From: Leucoraja ocellata
Lineage: Eukaryota
Reading direction: 5' to 3'
NCBI GenBank assembly: GCA_036785375.1
Contig: JAWMAR010000156.1
Location: 4,030,001 to 4,094,000 of the forward strand
Length of the DNA stretch: 64,000 bases
Positions 1,770 to 58,907 of the stretch are shown piece after piece (within the stretch, counting starts at the first letter, position 1; each line of letters opens with the position of its first letter). Both the position numbers and the translations under genes were made by a program. The notes beneath the pieces were generated by a model. It saw only the letters and a program-made list of their open reading frames with translations, made no database searches and had not been told where the DNA came from.

Positions 1770-2125
1770 AAGGTGCTGCAAGCAAGTAGGATGGCAAATG
1801 ACAAGATAGTTTGGGTACTTGAGGGAAGTCTCACAAAATACTGTGCAGGGCATTGGTGAGACCACACCTGGACTAATGCATGTGACTTTGGCTTCTCTAC
1901 TGAATGAAGAAACGCATGTCCCAGAGGATCTGTAATGAATGCTCACTGTCCGACATGGAGTTATTGATGATTTCAGGAGTTTAGAGCAATGTGACATGAT
2001 CTCATTAAAACTTGTATGTCTAGAAATCAAAAGATACTGCTTAGGCACTTTAAACAGTTTGTGGTCAATGTTACACTTGAGGGCCAGATGCTGGGAATTT
2101 GTAGCAAACAAGGCACACAGTTTTA
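1770..2125 (+). mobile_element. old degraded CR1 LINE fragment
   Basis: gcattggtgagaccacacctgga (ALVRPHL) motif, otherwise decayed. Confidence 0.5.
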
Positions 2126-4987: not shown

Positions 4988-6028
4988 GTAGGTATGTTAC
5001 AAAACCTACCTGAATCGCGTCTGAGCATCTGCCCTACCCAGTGTGCGCGATTTTGGCGCTGTTTAGAGGGGGCGGGTTTAAAACGCGATTTTTACTAGGC
5101 TGTTCCAATCGAAAATGTTCAGCCTAGTAAATCATTAACGGAAAATCGCTGAAAGACCCCGTCGCAAAAGGTATTATTAGTTTTTATGGCCTTGTATAAT
5201 ATTTATAGTAGTTTAAAAATCACTCTCTCAATCCGCAACCTCTCGCAGCCCCAGGGTATTATAAAGCAAACAATTAAAGGTATGTACCTTATTTTTACAT
5301 TAAATGGGGCTTGTATATAACCCTGTATATAAAGTTTTCTATAACGAGTAGTTCATTTTGGGCTCTTTATATCCCGCAGTATTTTTCTGGGCATTTGAGG
5401 GCACAAATCCAGCGCAATGTGAACGTTCTAAACCAGCGCGTTCACAGGAACCCACTAGAAAGCCGATTTAAATGGGCTTTAATTTGCAGCAATTGAACAC
5501 TAAATTCCTTCCATTTGGCCTATAAATTGATGTAAATGAGATTTAAAAATCATGTTTTATTGTGAATTATTTGTGAATATTATTTGGACACTTGGGCTAT
5601 TTAAAAATGTTAATCATTTATTAAGAAATGGATAGATGTTTAGATCTAATAATTGAAGTTTGAAATTAGCTACAATTGGGTAACTAACTAATTATATGCT
5701 TTAATTTCAGGTCATCCAAGTAAGATTATTTTATATTTGTTTCAGAATGCTTCAATCTATGATAACTGAAAATTTCATTCAGTTCTCTTAATTTTTAAGA
5801 AGGTTATGGGCTTTTGACTGTCCACGATCACAGCTTTTTTGTTATGTCCATAGAAAATCAATAGGGAACAAGATGCTAATTTCCGAGTATGAAAATGGCC
5901 ATAACTTTTTTATTACTTGAGATATGAAAGTGAATTAGGTGTCAAATTAAACTTATTGTTATGCTTTATCTGATGGGATAAATTGCAGACTTGATTTTTT
6001 AAATCTCAAAATTTTGTAACATTGCTAC
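4988..6028. mobile_element. non-autonomous TIR DNA transposon (1041 bp)
   Basis: TIRs GTAGGTATGTTACAAAA / GTAGCAATGTTACAAAA (15/17), flanked by TATG on both sides (4984-4987, 6029-6032). Superfamily uncertain because AT or TGC TSD readings are also possible. Confidence 0.8.
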
Positions 6029-20039: not shown

Positions 20040-23000
20040 TCATCATCAAAGCCCCCCGTCGGTCATGACACACCATGGGTGATGCATCCTAGTTGTTGGC
20101 ACCTCGGCTGGAGCAGCGTCGCTTGTGGCTAAAGAGACCAATGTGGGAGTGACAGTCTATGTCGCAAAGGTCACTTTCGTGTGTGATCTCTGGTTTGTTA
20201 AAGTTGCTGCGCACCTTCCTGTGTACCCGCTTGTCCGCCGCTGCGTTCAACAGTTTCTCTTCCCCCGTTTTGAGATGTTGGTTCAGGGTACCTCTCCACC
20301 TCGTGCGGTCGGCTGCAAGGCTCTCCCAGGATTCCACATCGATGTCGAGTGCCTTCATATCTTTCTTGCAGACATCCTTGTAACGTAGCTGGGGGCGGCC
20401 AATGGTTCTCCTCCCAGATGTTAGCTCCCCATAGAGGATGACTTTTGGAATACGGCCATCCTCCATGCGGTGGACATGGCCCAGCCACCGTAGGCTGTGC
20501 TGCCTGAGTAGAGTGTACATACTGGGAAGGCCAGCACGAGACAGGATCTCGGCGTTGACACTCTGTCTTGCCAGGATATGCCCAGGATATGGCGGATGCT
20601 TCTCAGTAGAAGGTGTTGAGTCTTCTCTCCTGCCTGGCATATGTAGTCCATGTCTCACAGCCGTACAGCAGCATGCTGTTGGTACAGGCGTTGTAGACTG
20701 CTATCTTTGTCTTCACTGTCAGCTTTGGGTTGGTTCACACTCAAGTTGTGAAGCGAGTGAGGGTTGTAGCTGCCTTCCCGATCCTCTTATCAATCTCTGT
20801 GTCCAAGGAATGGTTGTCGGTGATGGTGGAGCCGAGGTACGTGAACTGATGGACAGCATCAAATTTGTAGTAGTCTTCTTCAGGCTGATGGTCAGCCCGA
20901 AGTCCTTGCATGCCCTATAGAAGTGATCCATCAGTGTCTGTAGTTCCTGCTGGGTGTAGGACACAACTGCGGTGTCCTCGGCAAACAATATGTCTCTGAT
21001 GAGAGCTTTACGTACTTTTGTCTTTACTCTGAGGCGGGTGAGGTTGAAGAGCCTGCCATAGGTCTAGCACCCAGGTAGATCCCCTCTATTGCAGTGCCGA
21101 AGGCATGTTTCAGGAGCAGAGCGAAGAAAATCCCAAAGAGTGTGGGAGCGAGGACACAGCCTTGTTTGACGCCACTGCGGAAGGATTCTATCATGCTCTG
21201 CAGTTTTGGTGCGCAGCCGATCTTTGGCAGAGCCTTAAATAGGCCATCTCTGCTGAAGAGGTCGAACGCCTTGGTGACGTCAATGAAAGCAACATACAGG
21301 GGCATCCGCTGCTCTCTGCACTTCTCCTGGAGCTGGCGAAGGGAGAAGACCATGTCTACTGTTGACCTTCCAGCTCGGAAACTGCACTGTGACTCTGGGT
21401 AGACACGTTCTGCCAGCTTCTGCAGGCGGATCAAGATGACCCGAGCAAAGACCTTGCCGACGATTTTGAGGAGGGAGATGCCTCTGCAGTTGTTGCAGTC
21501 GCTTCTCTCGCCCGTGTTCTTGTATAGGGTAATGATCGTGGCATCCTTCACGTCCTGCAGCACAACTCCTTCCTGCCAGCTCTGGCAGAGGACTTAATAC
21601 AAACGAAGCAGTAAGGTAGTCTTGCAATGCTTGATCGGGTCAGGGGGAATCCCGTCGCTGCCTGGGGCCTTGCTTGGGGCCTTGCCTGGGGCCAGGCTGT
21701 CAATGGCCTTGCTGAGTTCTTCTACTGTCGGCTCTGCGTTTGATTCATCCGTGGTTGGCAGGCACTCGATGGCATCAAGGGCTGAGGGGGACACAATGTT
21801 CTATCTCGAATAGAGGTCGGAGTAGTGTTCCACCCATTTCTCCATCTGCTGACATTCGTCTGTGATTACTTCCCCAGTGAATGATTTGAGGGGGCTGTCT
21901 TGCTATGGACTGGTCCTAATGCCTTCTTAATGCCATCGTACATTCTCCTGATGTACCCTGTTATGGCCGTCTGGATATCCTCACTAAGCTGTGTCCAGTA
22001 GTCGTTGCGCAACGCCTGGCAGTCTGCTGAACCTTGCTCCTGGTAGCCCTGAGAATCTGCAGGTTCTTCTCGTTAGCTGACCACTTGTACTCTGCTAGGG
22101 CGCAGCGCTTGGCTTCGATGACGGGAATCATCGCGGTCGACGTCCTCAAACCAGTCATACGTCTTTGAGGTCTTCTTCCCAAAGCTAGCCAAGGCTGTGC
22201 GGTGCATGGTGTCCTGCAGAATTTCCCAGTTCTCGGTTGCAGAGTCTCCAGGACACGAGGTGCCGAGTTCTCTCTCAAACGCCTCTGCAAACTGTTGCAC
22301 GAAATCCGAACTGGGCATCTTGCTGACATCGATGCGGGGGTTCCCCTGCTTCTTGGTACAGTAAAACCTCTTTGGCTGCAGCCTGATCTTGCAACACACC
22401 AAGGAGTGGTCTGTGTCGCAGTCCGCACTGTGGTAGGAGCGTGTGTGGAGAACGTTCTTGATGGCGGCACGTCTGACTAGGATCAGATCCAGTTGATGCC
22501 AATGCTTTGAGCTTGGGTGTCTCCAAGAAACCTTGTGCTGGAGCTTTGTCTGGAAATACGAGTTAGCGATGCAGAGGTCATGGTTAGTGCACAGCTCAAG
22601 CAGTCACTGTCCGTTCTCATTCATTTTGCCCACACCAAATTGCCCAAGGCAGGAAGACCCACTCTGGCTTTGAAGTCGCCCAGGAGTACAAGTTCTTCCT
22701 TGCTGGGGATGCTGCTGATGATGAATGCGAGGTTCTCATAAAACCCATCCTTTGTGTGTGATGTGGAGGACAGTGGCGGGGCATACACGCTGACAAGAGT
22801 GACTGGGCCTGCGGTGGTGTTCAGGCAGAGAGTCGGGAGTCGCTCTGAGCCATTACTGCCTGGTTCCACCGTATTCAACAGGCTGTTCCTTACTGTGAAG
22901 GCTACTCCGTGCTCTCTGGGCTTCTCAGGAGTCATTCCCCTGCCAGTAAAACGTGTACTCCTTCTTCAGTGTGCCCCAGTCTGCCAGCCTTGTTTCCTGA

Positions 23001-33035: not shown

Positions 33036-33703
33036 TGAAGTTGCGATTACTGTTGTACATAGCATTGCAGGTAATGATGATAAAACACACACGCCAAAAT
33101 ACTATACTTCTAGCGGCGGAAGTCCGCAGGAGCTAGAGGACAGAGATGTGTGGTGCGTCCATCACCGTTCCTGTCGGAAGTCAGCACTATTGTGCTGCTA
33201 ATGTTTTCAACGATGATAAATTTGTAAAAGGTTTGTTTGCTGCTCTAGCTATTTCTTGGCTACAATCACTCCTCAGTGAAACAGAGTAAAAGGGCAAAAC
33301 ACCTGGTTTGGTATAAGACACAAAACTAAGAAAGATGATTAGTGGCAGTCAGAAACAATTTGGAGACTTCCGGTGGCGTCATGGAGAATTAAGGCGCGGC
33401 ATTGAGCTTCTCCCCTGTAAAATAATTGTGAAAGCCGTTTTAAGTCAGCACCGATTTTTAAAAAAACTCACCGAAGTCGCCTGGTGTTGTATAAGGGTGA
33501 TATCATCAGAAGGTGACGTGAAAATCGGGGAGATTAATGGTGAAATCAGGTGTTTAAATTAGTTTAAATGAGCAGAGATAATCGTTCAAGGGCGCCAGAG
33601 AAAAATACTATCAGTCTTCAGCTCGAGAAAGTATTGGATACTCTGCAAACGAGAAGAAGGTTCAGAAGAAGAAGAATCTTACAGCCAAGGGTCTCTGCTT
33701 GAA

Positions 33704-34671
33704 ATGGCAACAAAAGGAGACAAGAAGGAGAAAGAGATAAAGCAAATGCTTTTAGATATGACTGCTACAATCAACATTACACTGGAGAAGATGCAAAGTA
33801 TGGAGTCTCGTATGGAGAGTAACAAGCAGAGTATGGAGACTAGCATGGAGAGTAACAAGCAGAGTATGGAGACTAGCATGGAGAGAATTTCTCAAAAAAT
33901 TGATAATACTTGCAGTGAGTTAAAAGAACTGAAAAAGCAGTATAAGGAATTTGATAAGAGATTAAAATCAGAGTGTGTCAGAATTGAAAATGATTACAAC
34001 AAGAAATTTAAAGGTGTAAAGGATGATATCGGAAAGCTGGATGAGATAATGGAAGAGATGGAGAATGAGATAAAAGAGATTGTCTTGGAAATAAAGAGTT
34101 TGAAACAATCACTGAAAACTGAAGAGGCAAAACTTGGAAGAATGACTGATAAATGTCTGAACCTGGAATCAAGAACTCGGAGATATAACCTGAGGATTCT
34201 CGGAGTAAAGGAAGGACGAGAGGGACATGAATCTCAAGCATGTACTTTCGTTACTGATTTACTCAAAGATGTCTTTGAACTCTCGGAAGAACCAAGAATA
34301 GATGTCGCTCACCGAGTTGGGTATGTTGCAAGCGGAACAAATTATTCAAGACAGATAATTGTGAAATTCTGTGACATCTCTTCAGTGGAATTTATATTGA
34401 AAAAGATAACTCATGGGAAGAAGCTGACATACCGTGGGGATAATGTGCGAATATTTCGCGATTACTCTCCTGAAGTAGTCCAGAAAATGAGATTGTTTAC
34501 ACTTTCAGGGATGTCCCAGGAGTAAGAAATGGAATTTACTTTCCCGGAAAAATGAAGGTATCTTATAACGGCGTTGAACGCTCATTTGCAGATCCCGGAA
34601 AAGCTTTAAAGTATGCAGAGGATATCGTTAAGAAAACATCGGGGCAAGCTGCCGACAAGGAAGAAGATTGA
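33704..34671 (+). pseudogene. L1 ORF1p (coiled coil, RRM, CTD), frameshifted near 34510
   Basis: LESRTRRYNLRILGVKE, IDVAHRVG, RQIIVKF, VRIFRDYS; continues in another frame as YFPGKMKVSYNG...F.DP..AL to TGA at 34671. Confidence 0.85.
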
Positions 34672-35453
34672 ACTTTTTACAGAGTTTTGAACTGATTAAA
34701 ATGGCCGAGCTACCCAGACAATTAAAAAGCTTATCTCGTTGGAATGTGTTATTCAGAGAGCTTGGTTATATTCAACCTTGGATGAAAAGCTCAAAGTTTA
34801 ACCCCTTGGCACCTGCTTGGACGGTAGTTAACCCTTTGGTACCGGCTTGTATGATGTATGGTAGTTATAGAATGGGATATTATGTAAGAATCCTGGGTGG
34901 ATATATATTGGAAAGTTTAGATTAGATTAAGATTGGATAAATTGGAAGGACATATATACTTATATAATCGTGTATATGTTGTGTTCTATATTTGTTTTTG
35001 TTTTTTTACTCCTTATGTCTCTTCCTGATAATTTTTTATTTTTATTTTTTCTCTCGGCTGTCACTGGCGCTGGTTTGATAAACTCATAAGAAAAGACAAA
35101 ATATGAAACGGTATGTAACTTTTTATGAGGATTCACCAAGGGGGAGGAGCTCAATGTATAACAACATTACGGTGGTCTATACATTTTTTGCCATCATTGA
35201 TGGCTATTCGGCCTTAAGGTATCTTCCCTTAGATACCTTAATAGCACCTTTTTTTTAAAAGCACAATCAAGATTTTTATCTGTTTAATTTTTTTGAAAGT
35301 AATTGTATATCACATTCTTTCTTTCTTTTTCTAAGGCACTTTACAAGAAGGAGATGCAATATAAATCTAATAAACCGGGATGACCACCCAAGTCCTAAAA
35401 TTCTGAGGTATTTGGTTGCACCATATGATTCAGGAATATTACCTTGATTTACA

Positions 35454-38400
35454 ATGCAAGACGATAGACAAATAAAGAATGGAGGAATTACATTTTGTAG
35501 CTGGAATATAAGGGGTGCCAACGAACCAATTAAGAGGGGTAAAATTTTTGCCCAACTAAAATCGTTGAAAAGCGACATAATGTTTTTGCAGGAGACACAC
35601 ATGAAACAACAAACACAAATAAGATTAAAGGCGAATTGGATAGGCCAAACATACTACTCCTCATTTACTTCTAAATCTAGGGGTACAGCTATTCTTATTA
35701 GGAAAGGTATTCCTTTTAAATTAAAGAATACTATATCAGATAAAGAGGGAAGGTATATTATAGTTTCGGGTGAAATTTATGCAACCCCACTAACTTTGAT
35801 AAATATTTATGCTCCGAATTTTGATAACCCCCAATTTTTTGATAAAATTATTGACATCATATCAGAGTTTAATTACCAAAATGTGATAATAGGGGGGGAC
35901 TTTAACTGTGTTTTAGATTCATATCTAGATAAATCAGCAAAACAAAAGAAGAGTAATTTATAATCTAAGACTAGCGAATTTCTAAATACATATATATAAA
36001 AATACTAATATAATTGATGTATGGAGATCTGCTAATCCAGTTGGAAGGGAATACTCGTTTTAATCTTCGGTGCATAAAACTTATTCAAGAATTGATTATT
36101 TTTTAGTGGATATGAAATTAATGCCATATACAAACAACCCAACATACCACATTAGTAGTATCTCAGATCACTCTCCGTTGACATTTTCAGTAAAATTTGA
36201 GGGAATGCCGAGTAAAAAATTTTTTTGGAGGTTTAATACACATATTTTAAATGACGCGCAAGGCTATCAATATTTAAAACAACAAATGAAACTTTTTTTC
36301 GATACAAATGATATACCAGGTACTTTGCCTTCTTTATTATGGGAAACTTTTAAGGCATTTATGAGAGGAATTATAATTTCATATCAAAGTTTTCAAAATA
36401 AAAAGAATAAGACAGAACAATTGTTGTTAGAACAAGAAATCAGACAGTTAGAGTCGGATAATGCCAAAGATTCCACGACAGATAAACACAATAAGATAAT
36501 ATTACTGAAATTTAAACTTAATCGAATTTTATCGGCAAGAGTAATAAGACTATTCCAAATTACAAAACAGGAACATTTTGAGTTTGGTGACAAACCACAT
36601 AAGCTTTTAGCTCGCCAATTGAAAAAACAAGAAAAGGAAAATACTATAACCAAAATTAAATCAGAGAAAGGTGAATTACTAATACTACCTAAAGATATTA
36701 ATAATAGATTTGCCCAATTTTACCAAAACTTACATACATCTAAAATTAAAAAAGAAGATAGCAAAATAAAAACATTTCTAGATAACTGTAATCTTCCAAT
36801 ACTGGACCTTTTGGAACAAGAGGAACTAGGAGCTCAAATTACAATCAAAGAAATAGGTGAAACAATAAAATCGCTGAAAAATGGTAAGACACCGGGACCA
36901 GATGGTTTTAATAATGAATTTTATAAAAAATTTCATGAGATAACGACCCCTTATTTATTTAATTTATACTCCCATGCTTTTAAAGAAAACAAACTACCTG
37001 AAACACTAACAGAATCAACTATTACGCTTATTCCAAAAAAAGATAAAGATTTAGAAGATCCGGGCTCGTACAGAGCTATATCACTTTTAAATACAGATCA
37101 GAAAATTTTAGCAAAGATTTTAGCAAGAAGATTAAGCAAATATATTAGTAAATTGATAAACCCTGATCAAACGGGGTTTATACCTAAAAGATACTCATTT
37201 AATAATCTGAGACGCCTGTTTAATATAATGTACTCGCATAAAGTAGAGGAAGAAGATATATCAATTATTTCTTTGGATGCAGAGAAAGCATTTGATCAGG
37301 TAGAGTGGCAATACTTATATAAAGTACTACAAAAATTTAATATGGGAGAGAATTTTATAAAATGGGTAAAATTATTATATGATAAACCGATGGCAAGAAT
37401 TTTAACTAATAACATGTTATCTCAAAAATTTCAACTATCAAGGGGTAATAGGCAGGGATGTGCACTATCACCCCTGCTATTTGCCCTTATGATAGAACCC
37501 CTGGCTGAAAGTATAAGAATTCATCCGAATATTCAGGGCTATAATACCAGGGACTCAAAGAATAAAATCTCATTATATGCAGACGATATACTTTTATATA
37601 TTACAAAGTCACAAACGAGCATACCAAATTTATTAAACTTAATAGAGGAATTTGGGTATTTTTCTGGATATAGAATAAACTGGAATAAAAGCGAAATCAT
37701 GACATTAAAACCTCAAGAACCTACACACTTATTGAAGTTCCCCTTTAAAATCGCAACAGAAAAATTTAAATATTTGGGTATTCAGATTACTAGAAAATAT
37801 AAAACATTATTCAATGCTAATTTCATACCTTTATTAAATAAACAATACGCTGATTAAATTTTGGAAAACACTTCCCTTATCATTATTAGGTGGAATAAAT
37901 GCAATAAAAATGATCTTTCTACCACAATTACTATACCTATTTCAGTCTATACTGGTATATATACCAAAATATATATTTTTTAAATTAGACTCTAATATTA
38001 CTAATTATATTTGGGACTATAGATCACATAGAATCACAAAAAAACACTTATGTAAAACAAAAGAGGTTGGGGCACTTTCACTTCCAAATTTTATGTATTA
38101 TTACTGGGCAGTGCATATTAAGAATATGATTTATTGGTTGGATAGTTCTACCCAACAGACAGAATGGATAAAAATGGAGAAGGAGGATTGCCATCCTTGT
38201 AATATAGGAACGATCCCCTTCTCCCCAAAAAAACTGAATAACACAATATATAAGAAGAACCCAATTATATATGGTACAATAAGAATTTGGAAACAAATAA
38301 AATTATCTTTAAAATTAAGAAATCTATCACTGTTAATGCCAATAGCGAATAACTCTTTATTTAAACCATCTCTTATTGATAAGACATATAACCAATGGGA

Positions 38401-39250
38401 AAGTCTTGGAATTAGAAAGATCGGAGATATGTACGAAATGGGAAACCTACTATCATTCCAACAACTACAATTAAAATTTAAATTGAAAAACAATCAATAT
38501 TTTAAATATCTTCAGATTTGCGATTTCGTGAAAAAATATATACAAGGATATCAAAAAGTAACTCCTGACTTATTGGAAGAAGCAATGAATATTGAAGCTG
38601 ACTCACAAAAATTAATATCATATTTATATAATAGTATTCTAAATATAGACCTACCATCGACAGAGGTACTTAGAGAAGAGTGGGAACGGGAACTAATGAT
38701 AAAAATTACGAAGGTTAAATGGGAAAAATACCTGTTATATATTCACAAATGTTCAATTAATGTAAGACATAATCTAATTCAATTTAAAATTGTACATAGA
38801 TTATATTATTCAAAAACAAGATTGAACAAATTTTATCCAAATATATCCGCCACTTGTGATATCCGCCACTTGCCCAAAAGGCAACTATAACACACTCCTT
38901 AGTTTCCTGCATATAACTTTGTAGATTTTGGAATTATATTTTTGAAATATTTACAAAATTATTCAAGACAAGAATGGAACCTAATACTGAAATGATTATA
39001 TTTGGTGTAATGGAAGATGGGAATTAATTGAACACATCTCAAAATCTATTCCTTAACTATGGTTTAATAATAGCAAAAAAATTAATACTTAAATTTTGGA
39101 AGGGTACATCAATACCAACTCTTAAAATGTGGATTGCAAGTATGTTGGACACCGCTCATCTTGAGGAAATGCGATTCCTCCTAATGGATAAATCAGACCA
39201 ATTCATAATGAGTTGGTCTCCATTCGTCGTTTTTTTTGGAATCTTATGGT
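35454..39250 (+). pseudogene. L1 ORF2p (APE endonuclease plus reverse transcriptase), with stops and frameshifts
   Basis: SWNIRG, FLQETH, NIYAPN, GGDFN, SRIDYF, SDHSPL, PGPDGF, SLDAEKAFD, QGCALSPLLF, YADD; split over ORFs starting at 35454, 36070, 37910 and 39028. Confidence 0.93.
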
Positions 39251-40490
39251 GCAACACAATTGTAAAAAATAGCTGTTTCAGGACAGGACGAGGGTTGGTC
39301 AAGATTATAAATAATGATCTCCTTTTCTTTTTTATTTTCTTTTCTTTTCTCTATTTTCTCTCTCAACTTTCTTCATTTACTCGTTTTCTTTCTTCACACA
39401 CTATATATTTCACATCTTTCTATCCTTTACTATCTAACTTCTTTTTCTTATTCTAATCTTTTTTCAATGTAGCAAAAATAAAGTTGTACATAAAATGTAT
39501 TATGAAAATATATATTAGGCACTTTGATGCCATATGACTACTTACTTCTAATAAAATAAAATATTAAAAAATAAAAAAAAGAAACAATTTGGAACAGAAG
39601 ATCAGAGCTCGAAAACAATTTATCATCTGCACTAAACTCAATTTTCAGCATTTTTTGTACAATAAGCATACTTGGCATAAAATCAACTTCAAGAAAGCAT
39701 AAAATAGAGGGTAACAGATGGGCTGCCTATTTTATACACTTGTCAAATCCATTGGGATTTTCTTTCCATTCATTTAAATAGTTAACTAGGCATAATTTTC
39801 ACCAGTCTCTCATCTTCATCATATTCATCTTTGACTCAAATTCTCCTTCATTCCGATTCTGTTGATGGGTCTTATGCGTTAATTTAATGCAACTCCCGCA
39901 AGCACCTAAATCATTCCCCTCCAGATCATTGTTCACTCGTAGCTGCAGTCCTTCTGTTTCTGAATGACAAATGCCGTAAGAAAATGGAAGTTTCCGTCCA
40001 TCATGGTTAAAAGAACACAGTTTCAGCAGTTTAATTTTAGCTTTTTGTACATCTTGGGAAAGACTTCTAAGATTTTACCATGTTTCGAAGGTCAGGAGAA
40101 AATGATGCAACCGAGTAGAGATTCACGGAGACTCCATTCAGGGGAAAACAATTATGTTAGAAATAAGATTTAAGGGTCAAAGATATGAGTTGGGGCAAGC
40201 TAGATTTTTCTTCTGAGAACAAAGAATGAGAATCAAATAAAATTATACTTGGGTCATGCATTTCAAGATTAAAGAAATTATTAGAGGCTCTTCAGCTTGA
40301 AAATGTTGAATTTGTTGAACATGCTTGGTAGCATATTGTTTAATGATTTATGAATAATGTGCTGATTGGATGTGTGTTTGGGAAGTATGTGCAAGAAGTA
40401 GCAAATTTCCAGAGTAAGTGGTCTTTAACACTGAAAATATAGATCCGTCCAGACGATCATAAAGTAATATAACAGAGGTCATTCAGCCAT

Positions 40491-42807
40491 TATAACCATA
40501 TAACAATTACAGCACGGAAACAGGCCATCTCGACCCTTCTAGTCCGTGCCAAACACGTATTCTCCCCTAGTCCCATATACCTGCGCTCAGACCATAACCC
40601 TTCATTCCTTTCCCGTCCATATAACTATCCAATTTATTTTTAAATGATAAAAACGAACCTGCCTCCACCACCTTCACTGGAAGCTCATTCCACACAGCCA
40701 CCACTCTCTGAGTAAAGAAGTTCCCCCTCATGTTACCCCTGAACTTCTGTCCCTTAATTCTCAAGTCAAGTCATGTTTGAATCTTCCCTACTCTCAGTTG
40801 GAAAAGCTTATCCACGTCAACTCTTGTCTATCCTTCTCATCATTTTAAAGACCTCTATCAAGTCCCCCCTTAACCTTCTGCGCTCCAAAGAATAAAGCCC
40901 TAACTTGTTCAACCTTTCTCTGTAACTTAGTTGCTGAAACCCAGGCAACATTGTAGTAAATCTCCTCTGTACTCTCTCTATTGTGTTGACATAATTAGGT
41001 GACCAAAATTGTACACCATACTCCAGAATTGGCCTCGCCAATGCCTTGTACAATTTTAACATTACATCCCAACTTCTATACTCAATGCTCTGATTTATAA
41101 AGGTGAGCACACCAAAAGCTTTCTTTACCACCCTATCTACACGAGATTCCACTTTCAGGGAACTGTGCACAGTTATTCCCAGATCCCTCTGTTCACCTGC
41201 ATTCTTCAATTCCCTACCATTTACCATGTACGTCCTATTTTGATTTGTCCTGCCAAGATGTAGCACCTCACACTTATCAGCATTGAACTCCATCGGCCAT
41301 CTTTCAGCCCACTCTTCCAACTGGCATAAATCTCTCTGTAGACTTTGAAAATCTACTTCATCATCCACAACCCCACCTATCTTAGTATCATCTGCATACT
41401 TACTAATCCAATTTACCACACCATCATCCAGATCATTGATGTACATGACAAACAACAGTGGAACCAACACAGATCCCTGTGGCACCCCACTAGTCACTGG
41501 CCTCCAACCTGACAAACAACCATCCACCATTACTCTCTGGCATCTCCCATTCAGCCACTGTTGAATCCATCTTGCTACTCCACCATTAATACCCAACAAT
41601 TGAACCTTCTTAACCAACCTTCCGTGAGGAACCTTGTCAAAGGCCTTACTGAAGTCCATATATACAACATCCACTGCTTTACCCTCATCAATTTCCAGAG
41701 TAACCTCTTCAAAAAATTCAAGAACATTAGTCAAACATGACCTTCCAGGCACAAATTCACGTTGACTGTTCCTACTCAGACCCTATTTATCCAGATGCTT
41801 ATATATATTATCTCTAAGTATCCTTTCCATTAATTTGCCCACCACTGACGTCAAACTAACAGGTCTATAATTGCTAGGTTTACTCTTAGACCTCTTTTTA
41901 AACAATGGAACAACATGCGCAGTACGCCAATCCTGCGGCACTATTCCCGTTTCTAATAACATTTGAAATATTTCTGTCATTGCCCCTGCTTTTTCTACAC
42001 TAACTTCCCTCAATGTCCTAGGGAATATCCTGTCCGGACCTGGAGACTTATCCACTTTTATATTTCTCAAAAGTATCAGTACTTCCTCTTCTTTGAATCT
42101 CATATTTTCCATAGCTGCTCTACTTGTTTCCCTTACCTCACATAATTCAATATCCTTCTCCTTGGTGAATACCGAAGAAAATAAATTGTTCAATATCTCC
42201 CCCATCTCTTTTGGCTCTGCAGATAGCTGTCCACTCTGACTCTCTAATGGACCAATTTTATCCCTTGTTATCCTTTTGCTATTAATATAGCTGTAGAAAC
42301 CCTTTGGATTTACTTTCACCTTACTTGCCAAAGCAACCTCATATCTTCTTTTAGCTTTTCTAATTTCTTTCTTAAGATTCTTTTAACATTCTTTATACTC
42401 CTCAAGCACCTCATTTACTCCATGCTGCCTATAATTATTGTAGATCTCTCTCTTTTTCTGAACCAAGTGTCCAATTTCCCTTGAAAACCATGGCTCTTTC
42501 CAATTTTTACTATTTCCTTTCAACCGAACAGGGACATAAAGATTCTCTTAAAATTTCACCTTTAAATGTCCTCCATTTCTCTTCCACATCTTTCCCATAA
42601 AACAAACTGTCCCAATTTACTCCTTTTAAATCCTTTCGCATCTCCTCAAAGTTAGCCTTTCTCCAATCAAAAATCTCAACCCTAGGTCCAGTTCTGACCC
42701 TCTCCATAATTATATTGAAACTAATGGTATTGTGATCACTGGTCCCGAACTGTTCCCCAACGCTTACCTCTGCCACCTGACCCGTCTCATTTCCTAACAG
42801 GAGGTCC
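40491..42807 (-). mobile_element. long CR1 LINE (end of endonuclease through RT to 3' UTR)
   Basis: GTSDHNTI, KSPGPDRI, NYRPVSLTSVVGK, MDFSKAFDKVPH, GVPQGSVL, KYADDTK; (ttatatgg)n tail. Confidence 0.93.
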
Positions 42808-45831: not shown

Positions 45832-46160
45832 TAGGTAGACAAAAATGCTGGAGAAACTCCGGGTGAGGCAGCATCTATGAAGAGAAGGAATAGACAACGT
45901 TTAGGGTCGAGATCCTTCTTCAGACTGATGTCAGGGGAGGGGGGCGGGAAAATGAAAGGAAAAGGCAGAGCCAGTAGGCTTGTGGGAGAGCTGGGAAGGG
46001 GAGGGGAAGGAGGGAGAAAGCAAGGACTACCTGAAATTGGAGAAGTCAATGTTCATACTGCTGGAGTGTAAATTACCCAAGCAAAATATGAGGTGCTGTT
46101 CCTCCAATTTGCGCTGTGCCTCACTCTGGCAATGGAGGAGGCCCAGGACAGAAAGGTCGT
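45832..46160 (-). mobile_element. PLE 3' fragment
   Basis: DLSVLGLLHCQSEAQRKLEEQHLIFCLGNLHSSSMNIDFSNFR. Confidence 0.85.
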
Positions 46161-46211
46161 AATGGTTTTGAAATTCTGTATTTCTTTCCATTGTGATGAG
46201 ATAATATCCCC

Positions 46212-46265
46212 GGGGTGGAGGATTGCAACCTTCACGTGGTCCGCCCTGTTTCGACAAATGCAATC
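46212..46265 (+). ncRNA. minimal HDV-like self-cleaving ribozyme (predicted)
   Basis: P1 GGGGUGG/CCGCCCU, P2 GAUUGCA/UGCAAUC, P3 ACC/GGU, L3 UUCACGU, J1/4 GU, vestigial P4 with UUCG, J4/2 C-A-A-A. Confidence 0.78.
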
Positions 46266-46356
46266 AACCCGGCGTGCACAATCAAATAAGATCAAATAGA
46301 ACAAGTTGTTCAACAACTTTAGGCTGTACACGCCGTTCGCAAGAAGAAGAAGAAGA
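46212..46356 (+). mobile_element. 145-bp non-autonomous retroposon (Vingi/Ingi-like) with an (AAG)n tail
   Basis: TSD AGATAATAT(A)CCCC (46199-46211, 46357-46370, one indel); second copy at 58777-58907. Confidence 0.8.
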
Positions 46357-46585
46357 AGATAATATACCCCATTTCCTCAACTTCCATGCCAAGAACCACC
46401 ATTTTAAACAAATCATTTATTGAACAGCACTCTGATAATCCGATAGCCTCAGAACTTTCCTGGTGCCAAATAGTTTTTTTAGATTACTGAATATTACTTC
46501 TATTAATAGCTGCAATACACTTTTAAGTCACCTTTTTTGCATATTACACTTTAGTGTGCAAATTTTCCAGTGAACCGTGAGTTTA

Positions 46586-57791: not shown

Positions 57792-58776
57792 TATTTTGTT
57801 GTTGAATCCTCCTTCACCCTACATTTGCAAGAGTTTGTAATGCCATTTTTATATTAAGTGCTTGGAGCACGTTTTTCTGTTTGGATTATTTTCAGAGGAT
57901 GGAAGATGTCAGCTTTTTTTGCAGCCTTTCTTGTTATGAATGCCATTCAAGTGGTATGCTGGAGATGAAACATCAAGTAAAGATATTCTGGTCAAGAGAG
58001 CAACTTGCTTCAATATGGTGCCATATGAGCATCTTTCTGCTGCTTATTATCTTCATAAGATATTCGCACATGACATATTGGAAGTTATAAATGGTACAAT
58101 AGATGAAGGAATGAAAGTAGCAGCAGAATTCTATCTTTGGGCCCACCAGCCTGTGACTTTTCTGTCTTTTAAAATGAATGGGTGAAAAATCATGGCTGGT
58201 GATCCCAGAAGTGAAAAAACCTAACCAATGCCTTCAAGAGAAAAGAGGAAATTCCATTTGCAATAAATTAACCTGAAAGAATTCAGATCAGTGCCTTTCT
58301 CTGCAAGTTCCATTAACGTATGTCTTGATCCATGACCAGTAGTTATTGTAGATCTCTGTAGATGGAACAGGTATATGAAGAAATGATGCAGTGCATTGGA
58401 GATAATTTATATTTCTCAATGCCAAGGCCAACCTGGAGTTCAATTTGAAATGTAATTTGATGGCTATGGCCTTTAACCTGCCGGTAGTTGGTTATGTGGA
58501 TAGTCAATGAATACTTCTCCAACCACTGACTTTTCTCTACGCTCATTTTTATTTTTCTAATTTCAACTTTCTGTTTTTTCTTTTTGTTCTTTTACTGATT
58601 TTTTTTTCCTCCACAATTTCTCCATGTATGTGTCTCTTTCTCATATTTATTTGCTTTCTTCCCTCTCACCATTCCTTATTTCCTGTCATCTCGTGCCCTC
58701 TGCACTTATTTCCTCTCCATCTCTTTTTCTCCTTTGTTTACTGCTCCTTTTTCCAAATGGTTTCATTTGTTTATTC

Positions 58777-58907
58777 TTCTTCTTCTTGCGTATGGCGTGC
58801 ACAGCCGAAGGTTGTTGGACAACTTGTTTTATTTGATCTTATTTGATTGTGCATGCCGGGTTGATTGAAACAGGGCGGACCACGTGAAGGTTGCAATCTC
58901 CCACGCC
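58777..58907 (-). mobile_element. second copy of the ribozyme-headed short retroposon (ribozyme decayed)
   Basis: TSD ATTTGTTTATTC (58765-58776, 58908-58919), (AAG)n tail, 9-nt deletion in J4/2-P2. Confidence 0.82.

Follow-up and report, generated by a model that had tools for sequence, protein, structure and literature searches.

A predicted P4-less HDV-like ribozyme fold at the head of an internally deleted LINE derivative in Leucoraja ocellata, and a likely LINE origin of the mammalian CPEB3 ribozyme

The window analyzed here comprises 64,000 nucleotides of Leucoraja ocellata DNA (assembly GCA_036785375.1, contig JAWMAR010000156.1, positions 4,030,001 to 4,094,000 of the forward strand). 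It contains at 46212..46358 (+) a non-coding element of 147 bases. We hold with considerable confidence that this element is an internally deleted copy of a single-ORF LINE, likely of the Vingi clade, that it has been copied thousands of times, likely by the reverse transcriptase (RT) of that LINE, and that its head is an HDV-like fold devoid of P4 and predicted to cut before G1. The element is a P4-less variant of the bipartite, ribozyme-headed LINE derivatives that are already known. A wider reading, toward which we lean with less assurance, is that an ancient Vingi-type LINE, inserted in the sense orientation in intron 2 of CPEB3, left a 5′ end that was domesticated as the mammalian CPEB3 ribozyme, that Vingi-type LINEs generally carry HDV-like heads together with a covarying helix between the 5′ and 3′ UTRs, and that thousands of P4-less versions in the present genome are active and can cut host transcripts.

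The element starts exactly at G1 (46212) and is flanked by target-site duplications (TSDs). The left copy, ATAATATCCCC at 46201..46211 (+), abuts G1, and the right copy, ATAATATACCCC at 46359..46370 (+), has one A more. The first 54 nt (46212..46265, +), which align to the 5′ end of the partner LINE described below, can adopt a minimal HDV-like fold with P1, P2, P3, and a one-pair P1.1. On the plus strand, P1 pairs 46212-18 with 46241-47 (with the wobbles G1-U and U5-G), J1/2 is AG in the window copy, P2 pairs 46221-27 with 46259-65 (seven Watson–Crick pairs out of seven), and P3 pairs 46228-30 with 46238-40 and carries the loop L3 UUCACGU. P1.1 is the single pair C46233-G46248, likewise one pair in the Rfam model of CPEB3. 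After P1 come GU at 46248-49, UUCGA, C46255, and AAA; with only GU-UUCGA between P1 and C46255 there is no P4 stem, and the element fits the minimal P4-less subclass of HDV-like ribozymes (PMC10879173). The head has the features expected of an HDV-like ribozyme: a nested double pseudoknot P1/P2/P3/P1.1 with G1-Y, an L3 of the form U..CG, and a C at the catalytic position preceding a purine-rich J4/2, for which the signature in HDV-like ribozymes is given as CRRA (PMC6326823). By its position in the fold as first base of J4/2, C46255 (+) is the predicted catalytic base, by analogy with the ribozymes described in PMC6326823 and PMC10879173.

A preliminary description of the locus had already placed P1, P2, P3, L3, and the candidate C at these positions, and had noted the flanking TSDs, the (AAG)n tail, and the start at G1; all are present in the window copy when the sequence is re-read and parsed. 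Some details differ. The bases of J1/4 and of U-UUCG-A had been read correctly, with U46249 counted in both. The AAA following C46255 is true of the window copy and is a minority state in the family, in which C-GAA is the norm among 66 copies. The end had been set at 46356, and the (AAG)n tail runs 2 nt further unless the AG is assigned to the TSD.

Downstream from the fold, the rest of the LINE-derived 5′ UTR (46266..46292, +; local alignments to the LINE 5′ ends L140, L145, and L157) contains the 5′ arm of a predicted end-to-end helix (46271-46280, +). A linker of about 13 nt (46293..46305, +) lies outside the alignments to both LINE ends and, by eye, looks like a local duplication. The LINE-derived 3′ end (46306..46340, +; aligned to L078 and L080) consists of the last ORF codons, ending with the TAG stop of the ORF remnant at 46320-22 (+), followed by a short 3′ UTR with the 3′ arm of the predicted helix (46325-46334, +; one G>A change in the window copy). 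The tail is (AAG)6 at 46341..46358 (+), of the same type as in the partner LINE. An AUG made up of the final A of J4/2 and the first bases of the P2 3′ strand (46258-46260 in the window; also in the 5′ ends of L128 and L137) is in frame with the LINE ORF, and a second in-frame AUG occurs about 20 codons downstream. Another copy of the family is present in the window on the minus strand (58770..58907, end coordinate approximate); it is flanked by TSDs, and a deletion takes out the catalytic C and J4/2.

A strict descriptor for the double pseudoknot, written for this analysis, matches once in the two strands of the window, at the fold starting at 46212, and has no match in 2.56 Mb of window sequence after local shuffling. 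With Rfam, the 2.5 kb around the element give no ribozyme match. On a slice of 96 nt, CPEB3 (RF00622) is the best model, at 20.2 bits and below the gathering cut-off of 35; on the element, HDV-F-prausnitzii scores 13 bits for a cut-off of 44. ViennaRNA is unable to fold pseudoknots, and minimum free energy folding is uninformative for such a head: P1 alone is recovered, with no stability signal (z -0.10; z 0.51 and 1.02).

The window element belongs to a large family, here called family A. In the 3.44-Gb genome there are at least 5,021 exact matches to its 22-nt 3′ motif and 3,462 to a 35-nt core spanning P2 to the candidate catalytic C (none for either reversed control); the assembly has duplicated regions, and independent insertions are somewhat fewer than motif matches. 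We sampled the first 90, in order of position, of 100 matches listed for the 3′ motif: 75 are full-length, 12 are truncated at the 5′ end, and three are LINE 3′ ends, with an exact start at G1 in 65 of the 90. Removal of duplicated flanks leaves 66 independent full-length insertions. A TSD (at least 8 nt, at most one mismatch) abuts G1 in 55 of these, with lengths of 8-16 nt, while mismatched flanks give a mean of 2.0 and a maximum of 5. A high copy number and uniform 5′ ends at G1 had been anticipated, and both are found.

Among the 66 insertions, the base at the catalytic position is C in 60, T in five, and a gap in one. The base that follows is G in 40, A in 14, T in eight, C in three, and a gap in one, so that J4/2 occurs as C-GAA (40, the family norm), C-AAA (14), or C-UAA (8). 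J1/2 is mostly GA, and the AG of the window is a minority state. Each helix pair is kept in 57-63 copies, and every pair and core base together in just 20. Variants of high frequency fall in J1/2, at position 2 of J4/2, at CpG sites, and at the U5-G/U5-A pair. With a divergence of 3.9% for the head and 3.6% for the body, the two drift at the same pace, and the family A copies drift neutrally. There is no covariation within these 66 copies; in view of the equal drift of head and body, covariation comes from other families. In two clusters (G000:C1:19261560-19274616 and 19413133-19428672), family-A heads recur every ~2 kb, apparently through tandem duplications.

Three sampled loci extend upstream into a coding end with a CCHC knuckle. 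By walking upstream we reached L128, a TSD-flanked LINE with a family-A head and a family-A 3′ end, that is, the autonomous Vingi/Ingi-like partner sharing both ends that the preliminary description had proposed to look for. The partner has a single ORF with APE, RT, and CCHC, measures about 3.1 kb once later insertions are discounted, and has C-UAA as J4/2. Pfam identifies APE and RT domains in the pieces of the partner. The closest intact homologue, P0001 (1,019 aa), is 77% identical over a 230-aa RT query and has APE, RT, and a weak zinc-finger match in Pfam. Pfam detects no RNase H in P0001 or in five partner pieces, the last ~200 aa of the partner having been read by eye. A compact single ORF with APE and RT and without RNase H is the Vingi layout (PMC13708176), and the partner is likely a Vingi-clade LINE, a name given by domain layout and not by a tree with labelled Repbase elements.

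Nucleotides 1-81 of the element align to the 5′ end of the LINE (the alignments of L140, L145, and L157 reach nt 76-81) and nt 95-142 to its 3′ end with the tail (the last ~35 nt of the LINE, plus tail). Since both ends of the element are the ends of one LINE, the element is an internal-deletion derivative. The proposal of a SINE that borrows a Vingi/Ingi-like RT holds as to the Vingi-like partner and fails as to the origin, the element being an internal deletion of that LINE rather than an independently built unit. Where a LINE copy retains part of the head, its 5′ end is more ragged than in the short copies: of about 11 independent cases judged by eye, 1-2 begin at G1 and the others are missing 2-13 nt. 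Heads without a body were also followed as a route to the partner and led to interrupted copies only. No relative was found in viral contigs. The window also contains an old piece of a partner-family LINE (4989-6028), with 81% identity to L128.

A segment of the 5′ UTR is complementary to a segment just before the terminal motif and tail, with a sequence that differs in each family. An ungapped score of at least 7.5 is reached by 7/9 cognate pairs (two being family A, for which the complementarity rests partly on a shared palindromic hexamer) against 9/70 non-cognate pairs, and duplex energies average -16.2 kcal/mol for cognate and -8.0 kcal/mol for non-cognate pairs. The helix is not significant in L213 by duplex energy (63 of 500 shuffles) nor in family E and L174 by ungapped score (5 and 6). 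Such a 5′-3′ helix, with its putative function, would explain the retention of both LINE ends.

As far as sequences can tell, the HDV-like head design runs through the LINE clade. In a set of 75 metagenome loci encoding relatives (559 kb), the strict descriptor gives four matches, all just upstream of related ORFs, against none in 2.8 Mb of shuffles of these loci; a looser descriptor matches 7 of the 29 upstream regions scanned. Twelve of 21 candidate heads, mostly mutated copies, failed to parse. In the heads that do parse, the 100% pairing is circular, because the descriptor demands pairing. In nine heads of different families, 11 of 15 pairs have changed on both sides (compensatory), and strands swapped between families pair to 64% only. 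The covariation sought at the outset is found at this level and, as said, not within family A. All nine parsed families keep G1-Y, the U..CG of L3, the P1.1 pair, the C, and the AA of J4/2.

Several oddities were seen among these heads. L168 (about 420-545) has a Vingi-like head with, by eye, an apparent long hairpin inserted in L3. The head at L178:2722 is nearly the same as those at L169:303 and in L165, on elements of two RT sub-lineages; this may reflect either head swapping or a retained ancestral head. In one 5′ UTR subgroup (L174, L182, L183, L204, L208, L220, and L230), a motif …GACCGAATCC…GGATCCCGGTC… occurs downstream from the ribozyme and may be a second RNA structure. Several independent insertions in families A, C, and D have the head, with 20-30 nt of the UTR that follows it, inverted and joined at or near G1 to a 5′-truncated LINE body: L361 (=L279), L362 (=L271), L360 (=L275), L363 (=L287), L365 (=L270), L295, and L101:1247-1314. 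This arrangement suggests a second priming just behind the head with run-off at G1, which could be how isolated heads arise.

Self-cleavage before G1 by the head of the element is likely on the model of its fold. Transcription of a source copy would come from host read-through or start at a promoter within the head itself, and the head would then fold and cut 5′ of G1, as HDV-like ribozymes do, to yield a unit-length RNA. The precise genomic 5′ ends are observed, and cleavage is the step extrapolated from HDV-like ribozymes. The LINE protein would recognize the 3′ end, likely through the helix between the 5′ UTR and the sub-terminal 3′ UTR (the complementarity is observed, the role putative), and target-primed reverse transcription would insert the copy, leaving the observed duplications of 8-16 bp. 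Once inserted, copies drift as described above.

For RNA evidence we read about 6% of a single polyA RNA-seq run, X24, from a related organism. Depth over the element is about 500, and 239 reads run on 5′ of G1 into unrelated flanks; by these reads, family members are carried within host transcripts and mostly left uncut. X24 gives no reported pile-up of molecule starts, a weak test (polyA RNA, another species), because most copies are mutated and 5′-OH products are possibly lost. Self-cutting, release from read-through RNA, and cutting of host pre-mRNA, as proposed in the preliminary description, find no support in X24. About 63% of first mates in this run are on the plus strand, a bias that was set aside as evidence, as the library strandedness is not given and the neighboring repeat is also skewed.

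These data bear on an alternative that we consider unlikely, in which the head is mainly an internal Pol II promoter (or a fold that binds the RT or protects the 5′ end), with transcription starting at G1 and cleavage slow or dispensable. In L1Tc and NARTc the head (Pr77) acts as a promoter as well as a ribozyme, and the start has been mapped to +1 (PMC3383444); uniform 5′ ends are compatible with either route. The lack of a start pile-up in X24, the loss of P4, and the ability of position 8 to mispair with P3 point the same way. So does family F, a TSD-flanked (AAG)n element of about 170 nt (L285: about 1880-2052, minus strand; L289:580-750; TSD flanks seen for L285). Its CPEB3-like head ends after J1/4 and lacks the catalytic C and the 3′ strand of P2, which suggests that copies may transpose without an intact ribozyme. 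However, a DNA promoter has no need for a catalytic C or for compensatory pairing in a pseudoknot, and the nine parsed families keep the five core features listed above while their helices covary. The promoter and ribozyme roles are also not exclusive. A head likely to cleave before G1 remains our preferred reading.

Likeness to CPEB3 is partial in family A and close in its sisters. The window element has in common with RF00622 the L3 UUCACGU, the G1-U wobble, a P1 ending in CCCU, and the GU after P1, as well as C-GAA in most family A copies, but its P2 and P3 sequences differ, P4 is missing, and the score stays under the cut-off. In L213, a complete TSD-flanked LINE on a metagenome contig, the head scores 55.6 bits on RF00622 and is identical to the Rfam consensus at 35/38 positions through J1/4 and 10/11 at J4/2-P2, with a different P4. 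A search of the genome with RF00622 reduced 181,149 rough candidates to 59 that were scored; 56 of these pass the cut-off of 35, reaching up to 64.7 bits, and the 50 inspected fall in five further families, B-F. The Leucoraja ocellata genome has four to five LINE families above the cut-off, sisters of family A, and the best copies of families B-E and L213 score 48-65 bits. Families B (L357) and E (L358) are full-length LINEs, and in family C the head leads into an ORF start of that type (L245 and L282). Family D, old and decayed, keeps unchanged the 7-bp P4 stem of the CPEB3 consensus. By manual count, its member L259 is identical to that consensus at 55/62 positions, with three of the seven differences in L4, and L266 at 43 of the first 46. 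Six of seven independent family D heads adjoin Vingi-like coding sequence (E 4e-5 to 3e-41), and L266/L276 is a TSD-flanked internal-deletion element of this family.

In the RT tree, B, C, D, E, and L213 form one group, together with proteins of lancelet, echinoderm, tubeworm, and teleost (support 0.88), and family A belongs to another sub-lineage (support 0.87). Loci with fewer than 90 aligned residues were to be dropped and none fell under this threshold; the row L145_CR1like (a caught family-A fragment) and L356_other (a long branch) were disregarded. The suggestion that the element is a mobile relative of CPEB3 holds at the level of the clade only. Family A itself has the core in common with CPEB3, but a head without the CPEB3 sequence in P2, P3, and P4 and below the Rfam cut-off, and an RT sub-lineage apart from that of the near-identical heads.

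Convergence on an optimal HDV-like sequence, instead of descent, could also account for the likeness of the sister heads to CPEB3, and is in our estimate quite unlikely. R2 and HDV ribozymes have 21/27 core nucleotides in common (PMC8256844), L3, GGGG, and GCG/CGC recur in several families of the set, and the heads retained by the RF00622 search are by design the most similar of all the rough candidates. However, the identity extends to helices that are free to vary (the distal pairs of P1, P2, and the 7-bp stem of P4) and that do differ among other heads of the clade, and P4 is dispensable and absent from minimal ribozymes (PMC10879173); convergence thus explains the identity with CPEB3 poorly. 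The near-identical heads also cluster in the one RT sub-lineage with support 0.88. The mammalian ribozyme is single-copy, intronic, and conserved (PMC8233481) and traces of Vingi exist in the human genome (PMC5753468), so that domestication of a Vingi head is the simplest reading. Descent is preferred from sequence likeness, and the mammalian CPEB3 ribozyme is likely a domesticated head of a Vingi-type LINE.

The genome has seven CPEB ZZ-domain loci, and two of the 59 scored RF00622 matches share a contig with one of them: C211, a truncated family-B head in antisense 286 kb from the CPEB locus, and C50, 2.9 Mb away. No family D head lies at a CPEB locus among the 59 scored candidates. Domestication of intronic ribozymes in general has already been suggested (PMC7761336), and "CPEB3 related sequences" have been found by structure in non-mammals (PMC8256844). 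The literature consulted names neither a LINE ancestor of the CPEB3 ribozyme nor a Vingi ribozyme; papers on sea urchin and lancelet ribozymes could hold part of this. LINE heads that match CPEB3 even in the dispensable P4 stem would provide a concrete and testable ancestor, and a case of ribozyme domestication.

An ordinary Pol III SINE derived from tRNA, 5S, or 7SL with a LINE tail and a coincidental pseudoknot, as a short, non-coding, TSD-flanked element with a microsatellite tail and four B-box-like words with one mismatch might suggest, is ruled out as an identity by the alignment of the first ~81 nt to the LINE's own 5′ end and has a negligible probability, there being no exact match to the A or the B box, no A box even when one mismatch is allowed, no tRNA or 5S match in Rfam, and no descriptor match in shuffles. 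The preliminary description of a multi-copy non-coding retroposon without Pol III boxes is borne out to this extent.

LINEs headed by ribozymes have been described, as have bipartite derivatives of them (PMC6765202, PMC5786205). The closest parallel is with NARTc and RIME, the SIDEs of the trypanosomatid L1Tc/ingi clade, which likewise join a LINE 5′ end, with an HDV-like ribozyme cutting before +1, to the last ~30 nt of the LINE (PMC3383444, PMC4035085). The present element differs in its animal host, a partner without RNase H, a length of about 130 nt instead of 263 nt, a head without P4, its thousands of copies, and a cleavage that is predicted. The Vingi-1_EE derivatives and RTESINE, bipartite elements of Vingi, RTE, and R2, are also internal deletions that keep both LINE ends, and Kojima (2018) ties the bipartite design to 5′ ribozymes (PMC5786205); the fold and the 5′-3′ helix described here do not figure in the part of that paper available to us. 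The drz-Mtgn-1 and theta ribozymes also have no P4 and have the catalytic C first in J4/2, and are almost confined to phages, the eukaryotic search of that study covering human, mouse, and protists (PMC10879173); in contrast, the fold described here heads a vertebrate-type retroposon and has a one-pair P1.1.

If the predicted cleavage holds, P4-less HDV-like ribozymes would extend from phages to a vertebrate-type genome with thousands of copies, and 5′ ribozymes would extend to Vingi-like LINEs. For gene insertion, the Vingi clade has been engineered with a donor RNA that carries both UTRs (PMC13708176), and a natural minimal template of 130 nt with a predicted end-to-end helix hints at what a Vingi-like RT needs.

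As to the surroundings, the window ORFs of at least 130 aa resemble, by eye, pieces of transposons, and no host gene context was found in the window. The element adjoins on its 5′ side what we take, by eye, to be the end of a Penelope-like GIY-YIG repeat (about 46020-46158, minus strand). Also by eye, a near-complete L1-like element with ORF1, APE, and RT occupies 33572-39456 (+), and an RTE-like element and CR1-like pieces are seen at 20089-22603 (-) and 40817-42382 (-).
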